From Candidatus Kaiserbacteria bacterium (GTDB taxonomy: Bacteria; Patescibacteriota; Minisyncoccia; Phycocordibacterales; UBA2100), in NCBI GenBank assembly GCA_016186695.1, contig JACPLC010000005.1, positions 852-64,851 on the forward strand: a stretch of DNA of 64,000 nucleotides. The letters are read 5' to 3'. This document shows, in pieces, positions 1-64,000 of this stretch; the first letter of the stretch is position 1; each line of letters opens with the position of its first letter. Under the pieces are notes generated by a model. The model worked only from the letters and a program-made list of their open reading frames with translations. It made no database searches and was not told the origin of the DNA. The position numbers were made by a program, and so were the translations under genes.

Positions 1-1512
1 GAGCTCCTTCTTCACTTCGTCTGAAAGGAGGCCGCTTTTCTTTACCTCGGCGAGCGCCTTCGAGGCTTTCGTATCAAAGAATTCAGCAAGTTGTGCTTCT
101 ACGGCAGAAACTTTTGCTACGGGCACATCGTTAAAGAGTTTCTGCCCCGCGGCGTACAGAATCGCAACCTGCATCTCCATCGCAATCGGCGCACCGTTCT
201 TCTGCTTCAAGATCTCAACCATACGCTGACCAGAGGCAATGCGATCGGCCGTTGCTTTGTCGAGATCCTGCGCAAACTGCATGAACGCTTCAAGTTCGCG
301 AAATTGTGCGAGCTCAAGTTTTAGCCCGCCGGCGACACCTTTCATCGCTTTTTTCTGCGCGTCAGATCCCACGCGCGAAACAGAGATACCAACATCGATC
401 GCCGGCCGTATGCCCTTGTTAAAAAGCTCTGCAACGAGAAATATCTGCCCGTCGGTAATAGAAATAACGTTCGTAGGAATGTACCCCGAAACGTCGCCGT
501 CCTGTGTCTCGATGATGGGAAGCGCGGTAAGAGAGCCTCCGCCTTTTTCCTTCGAAAGACATGCCGCGCGCTCCAGCAGGCGTGAGTGTAGGTAGAAAAT
601 ATCCCCGGGATACGCCTCGCGGCCGGGCGGACGCCGAAGGAGCAAGCTCAATTGGCGATACGCGACTGCCTGTTTTGAAAGGTCGTCGTAGACGACCACC
701 ACGTCGCGGCCGGCATCCATAAAGTATTCTCCGATCGCAACACCCGCGTACGGCGCGAGGAACTGGAGCGCGGCAGGAGCCGAGGCGGGCGCATCGACGA
801 CGATGGTATATTCGAGAGCGCCTGTCTGTCGGAGCTGCTCGACGATACGTGCGGTCTTCGATTCCTTTTGTCCGATTGCGACATAAATACAAATCGGACG
901 CGTCGCTTTCGGCTCGTTGCGCTGGCTGATGATGGTATCAATCGCGATCGTCGTTTTGCCGGTACTGCGATCGCCGATGATGAGCTCGCGCTGGCCGCGG
1001 CCGATCGGGATCATCGCATCGATTGCTTTAATGCCGGTTTGCACCGGCACCGAGACACGCTTTCTATCGATGACTCCGTACGATTCGCGCTCCACCGGCA
1101 TAAGCGTTGTTTTCTTGAAGGGGCCCTTGCCATCGATCGGCTCGCCGAGCGCATTCACGACGCGGCCGAGCAACTCTTCGCCCGAAGGCACCGAGAGCAC
1201 GCGTCCGGTCGATTTCACCGTCATTCCTTCCGCGACCCGCGCCGTGTCGCCCAGGACTGCCGCGCGCACACCGTCTTCTTCGAGGTTCAGCACGAGCCCG
1301 TAGAGCTCTGCCTGTGTCTTCATTGCCTCCGCAAGCTTCTTGCCCTTCCCTTCTTCAAAAAGCAACACTTCGCTCATCACAGCTTTCGAGAGACCGTCGA
1401 TCGCAACAACGCCGTCGCCCACCGCCGTCACGCGCCCCACGTGCTCGCTTTCCACGCTCGGCGCGTGTGCCTCTATCTCTTTGATGATTTTGTCAACGAC
1501 AGTGTTCGCCAT
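1..1512 (-). CDS. atpA: F0F1 ATP synthase alpha subunit (C-terminus runs off the window start)
   Basis: Reverse translation from the start codon at 1510-1512 gives [10 protein letters not shown]...[18 protein letters not shown] (Walker A) and a C-terminus matching ATP synthase alpha. The ORF track misses it because it is truncated at the window edge. Confidence 0.9.
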
Positions 1513-1517
1513 GGTGT

Positions 1518-1904
1518 TTATTGAGTTGCCCGATTATATATCGAAAGCAGGGATTTCTTATAGCTCGCATCATGGAGTCGCTCGCGGCCCTCAAGACGCC
1601 ATCCGCCAATGAGGGAGTCGTCTGCCTGTATCGCGAGATCTTCGGTATCGATACCGAGCTCGTGAAGCGCTTCTTTTGCAGTGCGTTTCGCCGCGGCCGC
1701 ATGCTTTTCGTCTGCAATGGTCAACGTTACTGACTTCTTTGCGCTCTCGCGAGCCGCAATGCGCGCAAATGCGCGGGCTATACGCGGCATGAGCGCTTCG
1801 CGTCCGTGAAGCTTCAGTGTCGCGAGAAGCTTCGAAACTGCCTCTTTGGGCTTCGCGCCTCCCTCCACCATCTCCCAAAGCGCTTGTGCGTATGCATGTT
1901 CCAT
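1518..1904 (-). CDS. atpH: ATP synthase delta (OSCP) subunit, short form
   Basis: 128 aa. The C-terminal [23 protein letters not shown] is OSCP-like, and the gene sits between atpF and atpA. Confidence 0.7.
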
Positions 1905-2052
1905 ACCCGGTTAGTAGAATGTGCCTTTGCGGCAGACGCCTGCCGGCTGCCGCGGCGTGAGCGACCAATTCCCACTCGTTGCACTTTGTATATGTTCTTT
2001 ATTTGTTTTCATAGTTTTTGTAAGCCTAAGGCACATTTCACTACCGGGCATA
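1905..2052. repeat. Copy A of a roughly 150-bp intergenic element with about 21-bp terminal inverted repeats (MITE-like or structured leader)
   Basis: About 85% identical to 38113-38259. Both copies begin right after the start codon of a minus-strand gene (atpH, hpf). The ends cccggttagtagaatgtgcctt / aaggcacatttcactaccggg are inverted repeats, and an internal gcggca..tgccgc hairpin is present. Confidence 0.6.
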
Positions 2053-9360: not shown

Positions 9361-10020
9361 TCATCGCGTTTTATAGATCAGAACCCAGTAGTGTTCCAAG
9401 TTCTTGTACTGAATATTCGTTGCGCGATCACGCAAGAGAGTCCTGAGCTCTCTCTCGGTAGGATAATTCTTGACTACTTCGTGCTTGCTCCCGTCTTCTA
9501 ACGCCCGCAAGCGGTAGTTATTCCCGAGTTCATCTTGCCGGTCATCGGGTCTTTCGGTCACCAGGTTGTTATCCATTAAAACTACTACGGCGCCGGGAAT
9601 GACGTAACTGCTGATCGTGTCTAGGAATCGCGGAAAATCCCGCTTCAAAACATGACTGAGGATAAATCCACCAAAGAGAGCATCGCTTCGCGGAAGATCG
9701 CCTAGCGCATACATGTCCGCGACACGGAACACTACGTTATGTTTCGTATAGGTCTTTTTCTTCGCAAACTCGATGGCGTTCTCGTTTATGTCAGTAGCAG
9801 TTACTATCTTTGCAGTTTGTGCGATCTTTTCTGTCCAAAATCCGGTACCGGCCGCAATTTCTAAAACGTTTTTATTCACGAAGACTTTCTGAAGTATGTG
9901 GATTGACGTCTGAATGTCAGGCTGTCTCGCGCGCTGTTTTTCCTCACTGTATGCGTTTCTGTCGTATTCCGATGCACGATCTCGATAATAGGAGATCATG
10001 TCTCGGTTTATTTCGTTCAT
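9361..10020 (-). CDS. Class I SAM-dependent methyltransferase (paralogue 1)
   Basis: Motif I VLEIAAGTGFWT. About 65% aa identity to the island gene at 49036-49710. Lower GC than the flanking genes, and the start codon abuts the tRNA-Glu 3' end. Confidence 0.7.
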   Translation of the reverse strand: MNEINRDMISYYRDRASEYDRNAYSEEKQRARQPDIQTSIHILQKVFVNKNVLEIAAGTGFWTEKIAQTAKIVTATDINENAIEFAKKKTYTKHNVVFRVADMYALGDLPRSDALFGGFILSHVLKRDFPRFLDTISSYVIPGAVVVLMDNNLVTERPDDRQDELGNNYRLRALEDGSKHEVVKNYPTERELRTLLRDRATNIQYKNLEHYWVLIYKTR

Positions 10021-10093: not shown

Positions 10094-10159
10094 TTCCGCA
10101 AAATAATACTCAATAAACTATCATTTATCCACTCTCCAACCCTACATACTCTCAAATTC

Positions 10160-10453
10160 TTAAGAATTAGAGAATTCTCTAATGAACCCAACGAACGTTC
10201 TGCCGTACGGAGTTAAGCTATGCTCGATCGTCGTGCCTGCATGCCGCTTCTCGACAAGACCCGCAATGACCAAGCGCCGCACGTGCTCGGAAATTGTCTT
10301 CATGTTGCCTCTTACAGCTTCAACGACTTCACCAAGAGAAATACCGGGCTTCGCGGCGACGAGCAATAGGATCTGAATCCGCCGGTGATTTGCAACACCC
10401 TTGAAATGCCTTTCCAGTTTGCGCGGTCCCTTTGTTTTCTTCTCCTCACCCAT
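10160..10453 (-). CDS. ArsR/SmtB-family HTH transcriptional regulator
   Basis: HTH region ISLGEVVEAVRGNMKTISEHVRRLVIAGLV. The start is probably the internal Met (MGEEKK); the upstream ORF extension to 10540 would cover the palindromic operator. Confidence 0.65.
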   Translation of the reverse strand: MGEEKKTKGPRKLERHFKGVANHRRIQILLLVAAKPGISLGEVVEAVRGNMKTISEHVRRLVIAGLVEKRHAGTTIEHSLTPYGRTFVGFIREFSNS

Positions 10454-10465
10454 ACTCTCACATAC

Positions 10466-10489
10466 TCTCATATTCTTAAGAATATGAGA
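10466..10489. promoter_or_regulatory. Perfect 24-bp palindrome (tctcatattcttaagaatatgaga), candidate ArsR operator
   Basis: Perfect inverted repeat directly upstream of the arsR start, preceded by the tandem 10-mer catactctca x2. An imperfect copy (tctcaaattcttaagaattagaga) lies downstream at 10150-10173. Confidence 0.55.
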
Positions 10490-10521
10490 GTTCTCCCTGT
10501 GAACAACTGGTCTTGGCTTGA

Positions 10522-37743: not shown

Positions 37744-38112
37744 CTACCCTCCGAAGCGGAGCAGGCGCTTGGCAAGAGCGCCGCTTTTCCGATACAGGCG
37801 AATGTGGAGCTTCCGCTCGCGACGAAGCTGGCGCTCGGCCTCCTCTTTCACATCATCGATAGCGCCGTTGATACTTTCGGAATTGTTCCGCGCGTAGACA
37901 CGCTCCGCGCCCGGAACGATAATGTGTATTTCCGCAAACCAAATATTCGCACCGTGCCGCGGACGCCCCGCGTCGCGCCCAAGCTCTACTTCGATGCGAG
38001 CGACATCTTCGGAGCCTGCGAGAAGTTTTTGGAGTGACTCGATGCGGCTATCGAGATACGCCTGCACGTCCGGCGTCATCTGGAAGTCGGTTGCTTTGAT
38101 ACGAACGTCCAT
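37744..38112 (-). CDS. hpf: Ribosome hibernation promoting factor (HPF/RaiA)
   Basis: 122 aa; MDVRIKATDFQMTPDVQAYLDSRIESL is typical of HPF. Confidence 0.85.
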   Translation of the reverse strand: MDVRIKATDFQMTPDVQAYLDSRIESLQKLLAGSEDVARIEVELGRDAGRPRHGANIWFAEIHIIVPGAERVYARNNSESINGAIDDVKEEAERQLRRERKLHIRLYRKSGALAKRLLRFGG

Positions 38113-38259
38113 ACCCGGTTAGTAGAATGTGCCTTTGCGGCAAACGCCTGCCGGCTGCCGCGGCGTGAGCGACCAAGTCTCACCTGTTGCACTTTGGATG
38201 CGTTCGCTGTTTGTTTTCATCGTTCGTGTAAGCCTAAGGCACATTACACTACCGGGCAT
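38113..38259. repeat. Copy B of the roughly 150-bp TIR-bearing intergenic element
   Basis: See copy A at 1905-2052. It starts directly after the hpf start codon. Confidence 0.6.
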
Positions 38260-38265
38260 ATGAAT

Positions 38266-38883
38266 TTACTGGGCGACACGCTTATACTTCCCCATCAATT
38301 CCGCCTGCGCGACGACATGACCCTCCATCGCCCGCAAGACATCTGCCTTCGAAGCGCCCGCGGGAAGATCAAGCATCGTGTCGAGCGCAAAGAGCTTGAA
38401 GAAATAGCGGTGTTCGCTCGGCTCGTACTCTCGCGGCGGGCAGGGCCCTGTGTATTGATTCTTCCCCGCTCCATTTGCACCTGCTGTGCCCGCGCTTCCG
38501 GATTGTGCGATTTCCGTCGTTGCCGGTGGAATATTGAAGAGTGTCCAGTGATCAAACGAATCGATGCCGCGCTCTTGTTTAAAAACCTGCGGAATGTCGG
38601 GATCGTCCATCAGAAGTGCGAGACTCTTTGTTCCATCGGGCACACCCGAAATAAGAAGCGGCGGGCTCACGTTCTCGGCATCGCAGGTAAATTGCGAAGG
38701 AATGCTCGCGCTACTCGAAAACGCCGGACTCGTAAGTGAAAGTGCCATAGATTCTGACGATGAACTGGTAATCCCCGAAGTATCCCCGAGGAGCATGGAG
38801 CTACGATTAAACGCGTACCACGCGCCCACGCCTACGATGATAGCCGATATCCCGATGAGTACGTAGGTGTTGCGCATCATGAA
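38266..38883 (-). CDS. YbhB/YbcL (PEBP, Raf-kinase-inhibitor-like) family protein
   Basis: LLMDDPDIP...DHWTLFNIP PEBP signature. An N-terminal TM or signal segment is present. The start is probably the MMRNTYV Met. Confidence 0.75.
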   Translation of the reverse strand, partial: FMMRNTYVLIGISAIIVGVGAWYAFNRSSMLLGDTSGITSSSSESMALSLTSPAFSSSASIPSQFTCDAENVSPPLLISGVPDGTKSLALLMDDPDIPQVFKQERGIDSFDHWTLFNIPPATTEIAQSGSAGTAGANGAGKNQYTGPCPPREYEPSEHRYFFKLFALDTMLDLPAGASKADVLRAMEGHVVAQAELMGKYKRVAQ

Positions 38884-40591: not shown

Positions 40592-40663
40592 TCCGGGGTA
40601 ACTCAATGGTAGAGTGACTCCCTGTTAAGGAGTAAGTTGTGGGTTCGAGTCCCACCCCCGGAG
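40592..40663 (+). tRNA. tRNA-Asn (GUU); integration target of an island
   Basis: Acceptor TCCGGGG/CCCCGGA, anticodon loop CTGTTAA, T-arm GTGGGTTCGAGTCCCAC. Confidence 0.85.
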
Positions 40664-42147
40664 CTAGGTGAGACAGCAGACAGTTTACGGATAGTGTCAT
40701 ACGGTTTTCGCAAGGCAAACCGTAGCTCTTTTCCTTTCACTGTCGAGTTCTGAAGTAAGTACGCTAGAATCTCCCGTTTTTCATCCGGTTCAGAACTTCC
40801 GAAGATTTCTCCGAAGCGTTTGGAGATGCTCAGCAGCGTCCCAACATGGATGTGATAGCGATGGTCGGCCTTCGTGTGTTGCTCCATCTCCGCATTCAGT
40901 CGATCCTGCGACTCCTTCAGTTCTCGTAATTTATTATCATACTCATCGGTGGTAATACTCCCGTCCAGTCGAAGGTCCAGTAGGCTTTGTATTCGCTTTT
41001 GGGCCTTGTCGTACTCCGCACGTATGCGTTTAACCTCGCGCTCGTAGAACACCGCCTCGCTATCGTGGCTCTGACGAAGTTCGGTTACCAACCGTTCGTG
41101 CACTTGGTCCGGGACGTTTTCGAATTCCTTGAAAAGCGCGTGGAGCGGTTTCAGGAGGTCCTCTTCCGACGTATATACTCGCTTGCAAATACCTTTCGCA
41201 TTCGTGCAGGAGTAGTAGATGTACTTGCCCTTCTTCAGTTCGGGGCTCATGAGACAGCCGCAATCTTCGCAGCGAAGTATTCCTTTCAGGGCAAACGGCT
41301 TCGAGAGTATTTTCGAACGCTTGTCGCCCCTGCCTTCACAGACGTCCCGGCATCTTTCGAACAGTTCTTGAGATATCAGACGTGCATATTTGTGCTTGTG
41401 TTCTCCGTGCTTCCTCGATTGCGCGAAACCGATGTAGAAGCGATCCTTCAGAATTCGCTCTACATTGCTACGCGACAACTTCTGGCCTTTGAGCCCTCGT
41501 AGGCCGAGCTTGGTTATCTCTATCCAGAGTGCGCGAATCGAATACGAACCTGAGGCATATAGCTCGAAAAGCTTCACGATCAGATGGGCGCGCTTCGGAT
41601 CCGGAACGATATCATTCAAGATAACTTTTCCTTCGGCATCCTTTTTCTTATCACGGATGTATCCGATCGGCGGGTGTCCGGTGAATTCTCCATTACGGCG
41701 CTTATGCTCGAACGTGCGCTTTACGTTGTCGCTCAACTGCAAGATATACGCATGTGCCATGAGTACTCCCATCTCCCAGCGGATGATGTCCGCGCTGTTG
41801 GAATGCCTGTGTATGACCAGATTCTCGCGGTAGAAGTGAATCTCGACCTTGCCCTCTTTCACTAACTCGTCCAAGTACACCATGTCCTTGAATGAACGCA
41901 TGAGGCGGTCGATCGTATCGAACACGACCGCCATACATTCGTTGGTGCGTTCCCCCTCTTTCACCACGCTTTCTAATGCCTCCCTGAACCGCTTACGCTC
42001 TCCACGAGTGGACGATTCTTCGATCTTGTAAGTCTTCCAATGCTCGAGACCTCCTTTTTGCTTCACGTAGTCCGAGACTCGCATGATTTGAGCTTCGTTC
42101 GAATCTTGCTCTTTGTCGGAAACGCGAGCGATGATTGCAGATTTCAT
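40603..42147 (-). mobile_element. Large serine recombinase (integrase)
   Basis: N-terminal resolvase domain with catalytic Ser (IIARVSDKEQ), a Cys-cluster zinc ribbon (CEDCGC...CTNAKGIC) and a coiled coil. The last 61 nt of the ORF are antisense to tRNA-Asn. Confidence 0.85.
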
Positions 42148-49035: not shown

Positions 49036-49710
49036 ATGAACGGAGAAAACGGAATCAACCGAGACATGATCTCCTACTACAAGGATCGTGCCCAAGAATA
49101 CGACAGAAAGGCGTACGACCCCCATGAACAACCCGAAAGACAAGCTGATATCAAGGAGGCCTCTCGGATACTTCAGGATGTTTTCACAGGCAAGAGTGTC
49201 CTCGAAATCGCAGCGGGACCGGGATTCTGGACCACGATAATCGCACAAGCAGCGAAGTCAATTACTGCAACCGACGTGAACGAAGCGGTCATCGATCTAG
49301 CCCGAAAAAAACAGTACCCTGAAGGCAAAGTGACGTTCCGTGTTGCCGACATGTACGCACTCGGAGACATGCCTCTACACGACGCATTGTTCGGAGGATT
49401 TATTTTCAGTCACATTCTCAAGCAGGACTACGACAAGTTTCTAGACGCCATCAATGGCTACGTCCGCCCCGGGGGGAGTGTGGTACTGATGGACAACAAC
49501 AGAACTCTTACTCCGAGACCGGCGGACAGGACTGATGAGCAAGGAAACAACTATCGGCTGCGAACACTCGAAGATGGAAGTAAACACGAAATCGTCAAGA
49601 ACTATCCAACCCAGGAGGAACTCAGGTCTGTGCTACGCAATCGCTCAACCGGTATGGATTTTAAGAACATGGAGCATTACTGGATTTTGACGTATCGAAC
49701 CAGTACCTGA
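49036..49710 (+). CDS. Class I SAM-dependent methyltransferase (paralogue 2)
   Basis: About 65% aa identity to the gene at 9361-10020. The start at MNGENG abuts the GHKL gene stop. Confidence 0.7.
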   Translation: MNGENGINRDMISYYKDRAQEYDRKAYDPHEQPERQADIKEASRILQDVFTGKSVLEIAAGPGFWTTIIAQAAKSITATDVNEAVIDLARKKQYPEGKVTFRVADMYALGDMPLHDALFGGFIFSHILKQDYDKFLDAINGYVRPGGSVVLMDNNRTLTPRPADRTDEQGNNYRLRTLEDGSKHEIVKNYPTQEELRSVLRNRSTGMDFKNMEHYWILTYRTST

Positions 49711-63583: not shown

Positions 63584-64000
63584 AGCTTTGATTGCTTCTG
63601 CTAATCAATCACTCCGACAAAGTGATTGTCGGTAGCAGGATTTTTGTATACACAAAGCCCGCTACCAGAAAAGCGCCTTGCGGCAACTTCTACCAGCGTT
63701 TCCACTGGTAACGCGACGAACGCTCTGATAACGGGTTTTCTATGTTCGTCGCGCTTTCCGAGACCATATCTCGTAGCAACTACCACAAGGGTTAGGTCTC
63801 CAACTTATTAGGTTGTAATCAAAGGGTATCAAAAACAGCCCTATATTCAATGACTTTGTGGACGTTCCGTACCGTGTTGTAGCGTAAGGGTAAACGGGGC
63901 GTACACTTGCCGTCGAGAGGTCAATCTGTAATCGCGTCAGTGTAAGTATCCTTATCGTCCGGCGCATTCGCTTTTATGATGTTTTTCAAGCCAATGTTAT

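Follow-up and report, generated by a model that had tools for sequence, protein, structure and literature searches.

The 64,000-nucleotide stretch of DNA analysed here (the window) carries two closely similar repeats that are almost certainly copies of a MITE (miniature inverted-repeat transposable element) widespread in Candidatus Kaiserbacteria (Parcubacteria, CPR). Each copy is seated on the start codon of the downstream gene, which it has duplicated, and carries a short reading frame that stops 6 nt before that codon. Taken as one statement, a MITE that combines start-codon duplication with a translational relay to the host gene is probably what these repeats represent. The narrower proposal, that the relay is what would make the insertion tolerable, is one toward which the sequences incline by a small measure.

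In a pairwise alignment, positions 1900-2053 and 38108-38261 are 90% identical over 154 nt without gaps. The original prediction had recognized the repeat correctly, although it put the identity at about 85%. A 21-nt arm probe (up to 3 mismatches) matches the window at these two places only, with 0 matches expected from 100 shuffles, and an HMM built from 105 family members found no third copy in the 64-kb window. Each copy has the same strand as the gene that follows it, and all neighbouring genes are on the minus strand. The gene order, confirmed with Pfam, is atpB, atpE, atpF, element, atpH (OSCP) at copy A and PEBP-family gene, element, hpf (Ribosomal_S30AE) at copy B. The inserted DNA in each copy amounts to 147 nt, consisting of the element and one ATG. 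The features of the two copies are as follows.

1902..1904, minus strand: atpH start codon, the 3' copy of the duplicated ATG, opening the 128-aa OSCP ORF
1905..2051, minus strand: copy A, 147 nt, between atpF and atpH, delimited by the alignment to copy B and by the empty junction in L164, L169 and L170
1905..1927, minus strand: copy A terminal inverted repeat, 3' arm, AAGGCACATTCTACTAACCGGGT, holding at 1911-1913 the TAA that closes the relay frame, 6 nt short of the atpH ATG
1911..2012, minus strand: copy A relay reading frame, from the loop ATG at 2010-2012 (in CTATGAAAAC) through 33 codons to TAA
1929..1953, minus strand: copy A internal GC hairpin ("hairpin 2"), GCGGCAGCCGGCAGGCGTCTGCCGC, from folds and from compensatory changes over 105 copies
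2028..2048, minus strand: copy A 5' arm of the terminal inverted repeat, CCCGGTAGTGAAATGTGCCTT, with an in-frame ATG at 2034-2036
2049..2051, minus strand: copy A 5' copy of the duplicated ATG, still in its native setting TAA-T-ATG, with the atpF stop at 2053-2055
38110..38112, minus strand: hpf start codon, the 3' copy of the duplicated ATG, opening the 122-aa Ribosomal_S30AE ORF
38113..38259, minus strand: copy B, 147 nt, between the PEBP-family gene and hpf, delimited by the empty orthologous junctions in L171-L174
38113..38135, minus strand: copy B terminal inverted repeat, 3' arm, holding at 38119-38121 the TAA that closes the relay frame
38119..38220, minus strand: copy B relay reading frame, from the loop ATG at 38218-38220 to TAA, 6 nt before the hpf ATG
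38137..38161, minus strand: copy B internal GC hairpin ("hairpin 2"), from folds and compensatory changes
38236..38256, minus strand: copy B 5' arm of the terminal inverted repeat, with an in-frame ATG at 38242-38244
38257..38259, minus strand: copy B 5' copy of the duplicated ATG, 6 nt past the PEBP stop (38266-38268)

The TAAtATG context of the 5' ATG in copy A is identical in the empty site of L164, and the copy A relay frame is also open from the 5' ATG at 2051 (46 codons). The 21-bp terminal inverted repeats that had been described at the outset pair over 21 bp in both copies, and the internal GC hairpin not only folds but also covaries in relatives. At their upstream end the copies had been thought to reach the upstream stop, from which they are in fact separated by gaps of 1 nt and 6 nt. 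The second copy of the start codon at this upstream end had been overlooked; the 148-bp spacer includes 147 nt of inserted DNA.

Several other features were noted in the window. A LOOT RNA (Rfam RF03000; 54 bits against a gathering score of 46.4) lies at 63670-63798 on the minus strand. A 514-aa large serine recombinase with Resolvase, Recombinase and Zn_ribbon_recom domains is encoded at 40592-42147 (minus strand), and the 3' end of its gene overlaps a tRNA-Asn (40592-40664, plus strand); this overlap may be the edge of an integrated element. Positions 9949-10017 and 49048-49116, 39 kb apart, form a 69-nt inverted repeat with 81% complementarity, one of the two sites adjoining a tRNA-Glu. The 36-nt palindrome ACTCTCATATTCTTAAGAATATGAGAGT occurs twice, at 10144-10179 and 10460-10495, with a spacing of 316 nt.

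Two arm cores gave 45 matches at 43 loci in 24 species-representative assemblies, with at most 8 copies per assembly. Most of these assemblies are labelled Candidatus Kaiserbacteria and the others only Parcubacteria or Patescibacteria, several of the MAG labels being generic. Metagenomes, mostly from aquifer samples, supplied at least 120 further stretches when searched with the 3' arm alone, a query that required neither an ATG nor the 5' arm. Pooled and deduplicated, the collection holds at least 134 unique copies at no fewer than 111 distinct sites; the patterns used to gather them were exact ones of 22 nt, a few aquifer data sets contributed most of the copies, and the copies are related by descent, so that the counts are non-independent. 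The range of the element and its copies per genome are lower bounds, and sites were clustered and ORFs called mechanically. Viral contigs gave no match to the element.

Filled and empty versions of the same site are found side by side. Seven ortholog pairs among the loci consist of one filled and one empty member (for example, L025 is filled and L035 empty), and at secY, purD and ruvX the element is present in one genome and the site empty in another. The atpF and atpH genes of L164, L169 and L170 are separated by one base and have no element between them, the L164 junction, cattcaTAAtATGgaacac, being exactly the window sequence minus 147 nt. In four further relatives (L171-L174; hpf 85-94% identical) the PEBP stop lies 1-7 nt before the hpf ATG. 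Because these orthologous junctions are empty, both window copies are insertions, and for the atpF-atpH spacer, which the original prediction had already interpreted in this way, the L164 junction is direct proof. The further checks proposed with that prediction, namely counting copies, comparing orthologous atpF-atpH junctions and folding, gave many dispersed copies in many genomes, empty sites in relatives and stable folds, respectively. In L010, L035, L049, L050, L054, L084, L088, L101, L118 and L121 two or three consecutive genes each have a copy of their own; the three copies in L050 lie within 2.4 kb, and the two in L035, which are nearly identical, precede neighbouring genes for small membrane proteins.

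At 102 of the 111 listed sites (92%) the 3' end of the element is followed directly by [T/C][A/G]TG opening at least 60 codons, and at all listed sites it is oriented in the sense of the downstream gene. At the 9 exceptions a gene of the same sense begins no more than about 20 nt downstream. Three extra copies obtained with the HMM, and thus without the search pattern, are likewise situated at starts. The triplets on the two sides of the element always agree (ATG/ATG at 92 and GTG/GTG at 2 of the listed sites). An additional A follows the 5' ATG at 14 sites, and the host gene begins with ATGA in 14 of these 14, compared with 30 of the other 80 (Fisher test, 6.6e-6). These 14 copies are spread over several sequence subfamilies, showing that the extra A derives from the target and not from the element lineage. 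Copies away from starts, together with a sister family described below, are flanked by repeats of TATAA, TTTG or TGTA. Of 94 listed sites, 81 have T and 13 have C immediately before the 5' ATG and none has a purine, compared with 41% purine at ordinary starts. The element therefore makes a site-dependent target-site duplication of 3-5 bp on the start codon, (T/C)ATG(A), with a preference for YATG (TATR-like). The duplication leaves one ATG, at the 5' end, in its native upstream and initiation context, while the ATG at the 3' end restores the ORF of the host gene.

The host genes belong to roughly 85-90 unrelated families. Judged from their N-terminal sequences, they include what we take to be rplP, nusG, infB, secY, mraY, mreB, trmD and purD. 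The start of mreB is occupied in six site clusters and that of hpf in two. Tight operon junctions are enriched among the filled sites: in 47% of them the gene upstream stops 0-10 nt ahead of the 5' ATG, compared with 17% of ordinary starts.

Since the duplication varies with the site, it points to staggered cuts by a transposase that would be of the DDE type, and for the same reason mobilisation by an HUH enzyme or a site-specific recombinase is unlikely. No long element bounded by the arms of this element, as an autonomous partner would be, was found in the 1.18 Mb of collected loci. An IS4/IS5-type insertion sequence with a 268-aa DDE_Tnp_1 protein is present at L172 1625-2634, just downstream of the hpf gene of this relative; its ends, CTGTGAATAACGAAAC, are flanked by GTTA. 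It was rejected as the partner, its ends being different from the MITE arms.

The element is about 143-147 nt long, and the distance from the 5' ATG to the 3' ATG is 146-165 nt among the listed sites. Its longest frame has at most 50 codons, with one read-through exception, so that it is of MITE size and has no transposase gene inside. Read in the sense of the host gene, the consensus begins with the flank, (T)ATG, CCCGGTAGTGAAATGTGCCTT, an A-rich loop containing CTATGAAAAC and a variable hairpin, and continues with the GC hairpin, AAAGGCACATTCTACT(A/G)AC(C/T/G)GGGT, ATG and the host ORF. With its small size, lack of a transposase gene, terminal inverted repeats, site-following duplication and dispersed copies that are present or absent at a given site, the element has the properties of a MITE, apart from an autonomous partner, which the 1.18 Mb of collected loci did not yield. 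The suggestion that it might be a MITE with a specific target is supported by the dispersed copies, the empty orthologous sites and the site-dependent duplication.

When the element is folded in gene sense, the arms form a closing stem of 21 bp in which one bulged A and one A/C mismatch are conserved (105-107 copies). This stem encloses an unpaired stretch rich in A, together with a variable hairpin and the GC hairpin. The folding energies of the two window copies are -58 and -62 kcal/mol (z = -4.4 and -4.0), and in the minimum-energy folds of both the base of the stem takes up the host AUG in pairing. Hairpin 2 and a short GGC/GCC helix are strongly conserved and show compensatory changes over 105 copies. 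In the arms 24 G-U pairs were counted against 9 A-C pairs, a modest excess that is only suggestive of an RNA fold rather than a DNA fold. Consensus scans found neither a sigma-70 promoter nor an intrinsic terminator in either window copy. A search of Rfam, with the whole window at gathering scores and with the element at E values up to 10, gave no relevant family.

The signals for initiation in these genomes were assessed from 443 ordinary gene starts taken from loci L001-L163 and the window. Words of four nucleotides resembling a Shine-Dalgarno (SD) sequence lie upstream of 12% of them. A -10-like TANNNT ending exactly at -7 precedes 78 genes (18%), compared with 5-18 genes (1-4%) at neighbouring positions, and the commonest of these words are TATAAT, TAGAAT and TATACT. 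This pattern of upstream words suggests that leaderless mRNAs are widespread and that Shine-Dalgarno sequences are not used in these Kaiserbacteria. According to a published survey, about half of the Parcubacteria lack the anti-SD motif (PMC9297842). Genomes of this kind offer hardly any untranslated leader where an insertion could be neutral. The element had been thought to supply the ribosome-binding site of its host gene. In the sense of an SD sequence this is contradicted by the lack of such a signal in the genomes; what the element does supply is an exposed ATG and a short frame. A split Shine-Dalgarno box brought near the AUG by the stem was also rejected, SD-like words not being enriched at ordinary starts.

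The A-rich loop, which is unpaired, contains an ATG that opens about 34 codons (range about 31-50). At 98 of the 107 listed sites this frame comes to its stop either at -6 or by overlapping the host start as ATGA. Coupled gene pairs of bacteria show the same arrangement, with a stop 6 nt before the next start or an ATGA overlap. The frame of the loop ATG is shared, in most copies, by the duplicated 5' ATG and the ATG of the 5' arm. The frame of the 5'-arm ATG reaches the stop at the host start in 89 of the 107 listed sites, and the duplicated 5' ATG opens 46-47 codons in most copies, with the TAA or TGA stop in the 3' arm at -6. An N-terminal extension of the host protein and translational bypass were both rejected on account of the in-frame stop 6 nt before the host ATG, found in 45 of 47 copies.

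The relay frame is open in 91 of 107 copies, compared with 12 and 24 for the other two frames. Because the copies share ancestry, signs of frame preservation that inheritance would not produce were sought. Two independent indels were scored, as 72 or 73 nt before hairpin 2 and 28 or 30 nt from hairpin 2. The combinations 72+28 (20 sites) and 73+30 (41 sites) preserve the frame. The combination 72+30 occurs at 17 sites, 16 of them at ATGA hosts, where alone the shifted frame can stop, in the ATGA overlap; the fourth combination, 73+28, occurs at 3 sites only. Frame-shifted variants of the element are thus found almost exclusively at ATGA hosts. Among copies without the extra A, the host begins with ATGA in 11 of 12 when the length modulo 3 is 2 and in 14 of 60 when it is 0 (Fisher p = 1.4e-5), the host genes being all different. 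Counts of stops that only one or two copies possess are 5, 13 and 13 for the three frames and, at non-ATGA hosts, 0, 9 and 5, the relay frame having 0 of the 14. This count replaced a nearest-neighbour test of stop gain, in which indels and neighbouring changes were ignored and the avoidance of stops was weak and non-significant (25/1031 versus 33/959 and 36/1060). The relay peptide itself is not conserved: it ends in ...CRKGTFY or ...AKAHSTxxV according to frame class, and its middle varies freely. We infer that what is conserved would be the ability of ribosomes to translate across the element and to terminate where the host gene starts, rather than the peptide.

In the proposed mechanism ribosomes would start on the element, either at the exposed loop AUG or at the 5' AUG, which they would reach through leaderless initiation or through coupling with the gene upstream. 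While translating the relay frame they would melt the 21-25 bp closing stem in which the host AUG is buried, terminate at the stop in the 3' arm and then reinitiate on the host gene. The host gene would in this way remain translated, and the insertion would do little harm. Such a relay fits an organism that appears to start translation without Shine-Dalgarno sequences, using leaderless mRNAs or stop-start coupling. There are, however, observations that do not fit easily. Nine of the 107 listed sites are without a relay-competent frame, and at 14 listed sites the frame of the 5' ATG has only 3 codons. The stable closing stem should hinder initiation at the 5' ATG as well. Covariation in the arms would be expected of transposon ends too and so does not prove a role as RNA, and the conservation of hairpin 2 and of the GGC/GCC helix is left without an explanation.

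The same MITE might instead be tolerated by means of RNase III, which would cut the stem of 21-25 bp as it does the repeats of Correia elements (PMC10969869). The product would be a downstream mRNA with a very short unstructured leader, translatable in an organism prone to leaderless initiation. The long, near-perfect stem with its conserved bulge and mismatch agrees with such cleavage, as does the leaderless-type promoter geometry common in these genomes. However, the product would begin about 10 nt upstream of the AUG and hence not be truly leaderless. Moreover, the open frame, its stop at -6 or in the ATGA overlap, and the link between frame class and ATGA hosts are left unexplained. Tolerance by way of such processing is considered unlikely.

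It is equally doubtful that the element is a mobile cis-regulatory module, in which the fold made up of closing stem, three-way junction and hairpin 2 would respond to a signal or be bound by a protein, so that many housekeeping genes would come under one translational control. The compensatory changes do extend beyond the arms to hairpin 2 and the GGC/GCC helix, the same genes (mreB and hpf, in the site clusters counted above) keep insertions across species, and the host AUG is sequestered in the folds. Against this, the host genes are highly diverse, close relatives differ in the presence of the element, no partner or ligand is indicated, Rfam gave no match, and the fold could serve transposition instead. 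Processing by RNase III and a regulatory fold could both be compatible with the relay.

An element-borne promoter, with TACTAA-N6-ATG in the 3' arm mimicking the local -10 signal and giving a leaderless host mRNA, is rejected as very improbable. The 3' arm does place TACTAA or TACTGA at -12 to -7, where native genes have a TANNNT ending at -7, but the T at -7 by which the native signal is defined is missing from the hexamer, a -35-like box is absent because the covarying hairpin occupies its place, the consensus scans were empty, and the frame of the relay is not explained. The element is hardly to be taken for a non-mobile conserved leader or small-protein gene, that is, for common regulation of atpH and hpf (as the original prediction had also considered) or a functional peptide of 33-50 aa: in spite of the significantly stable folds and the open frame, the sites of relatives are empty at both hpf and atpH, the at least 111 sites are at unrelated genes of some 85-90 families, the copies have a target-site duplication, the peptide differs between subfamilies and frame classes, and Rfam has no matching family.

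The element can be compared with known systems. Correia elements of Neisseria (CREE/NEMIS) are likewise MITEs; they measure about 100-155 bp, have long terminal inverted repeats that make a long RNA stem, and are transcribed together with the genes beside them. They duplicate TA, and their distance from genes is variable. In contrast, the Kaiserbacteria element duplicates the start codon, is found at that codon in 92% of the listed sites and carries a frame ending at the host start, and the repeat sequences of the two are unrelated. With (T/C)ATG(A) duplicated instead of TA and no Correia repeat present, it is not a Correia element. The only Neisseria-related match in Rfam was nse_sRNA, with 15 bits against a gathering score of 75.

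Rickettsia palindromic elements (RPEs) are about 150 bp long, occur in a reduced genome and survive inside expressed genes in a manner that respects translation (PMC10969869). The present element is similarly a palindromic mobile element of about 150 bp in a reduced genome. However, an RPE lies in frame inside an ORF, to which it adds a peptide, whereas the Kaiserbacteria element lies before the ORF and is separated from it by the in-frame stop in 45 of 47 copies, and it is therefore not an RPE.

ERIC/IRU and REP/REPIN sequences of Proteobacteria are also short imperfect palindromes in transcribed intergenic DNA of operons, with compensatory changes in their arms, but neither is tied to start codons or has a conserved pass-through frame. 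REP/REPIN sequences depend on RAYT (HUH) transposases and do not duplicate their target. A derivation from these or from IS200/IS605 was rejected, because the present element has a site-dependent duplication and its ends pair mutually, without separate terminal hairpins. Curated cis-regulatory RNAs of Rfam, such as the raiA motif and ribosomal leaders, were rejected in the same way, there being no match and the orthologous sites being empty. The stop-start geometry at the element frame is the same as in termination-reinitiation coupling (ATGA and TAATG overlaps), the difference being that the upstream "gene" is here a mobile, non-conserved frame; the likeness is one of mechanism and not of family membership.

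The Chunjie MITE of Geobacter uraniireducens has reportedly inserted into an operon and left it undisturbed; we know of no description of start-codon duplication or a relay frame for it. Full-text searches of the literature found no precedent for MITEs that duplicate start codons, and a 2024 review of prokaryotic MITEs has nothing on start codons (PMC10969869). We therefore regard the element as a new form of MITE, duplicating the start codon and carrying a putative relay ORF.

Relatives and remnants of the element, and a further small insert, were seen among the collected loci. The sister family is represented by L002 1416-1559 (minus strand), which is the same as L117 2784-2927, and by L109 1546-1691. 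Its arm cores, GGTTTGCCTT / AAGGCAAACT, have compensatory changes, and it is flanked by TGTA/TGTA or TATAA/TATAA, away from start codons; the L002 copy lies about 50 nt upstream of a standard copy. At L037 2732-2882 the arms are normal and the interior is inverted, the flanks being GTG/GTG and the real gene start 17 nt downstream. Recombination of one arm with the other looks to have inverted the interior of this copy. At L057 (about 484-540, minus strand) there is a solo 3' arm with no 5' arm nearby, and an ordinary ORF ends at the TAA of the arm (...KGTFY*), so that a remnant of the element now gives the gene its last codons and its stop. Being a remnant at the end of an ordinary ORF, this arm was rejected as the end of an autonomous partner. 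The atpF-atpH junction of other Kaiserbacteria has a different palindromic insert of about 75 nt, AGCCAATAGGGTATGG...CCATAAACCCTATTGGCT, between the atpF stop TAG and the atpH ATG (L165 and L166, 1425-1500; L167, 1424-1500; L168, about 410-490). It looks like a second family of small mobile elements that uses gene junctions.

The use of start codons may be built into the element, with a transposase directed to initiation sites, instead of being what selection has left. It would then be a mobile translational coupler that also gates dozens of housekeeping genes per genome by one shared RNA fold, among them those for ATP synthase, ribosomal proteins, secY, infB, nusG, mreB and hpf. We give little credence to this possibility; if true, bacteria that initiate without Shine-Dalgarno sequences would have a layer of translational control that is mobile and spans the genome.

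Copies of the element lengthen operon junctions and create spurious small ORFs, and they may mislead gene callers on start positions in Kaiserbacteria genomes. The element also gives indirect evidence on how translation starts in the CPR, namely without Shine-Dalgarno sequences, with leaderless geometry and with stop-start coupling. Descriptions of MITEs usually place them in intergenic DNA, or within genes and in frame in the case of Rickettsia. A family seated almost exclusively on start codons, which it duplicates, with a pass-through frame that stops at the host start, would be a new route by which selfish DNA persists in a streamlined genome poor in spacers.
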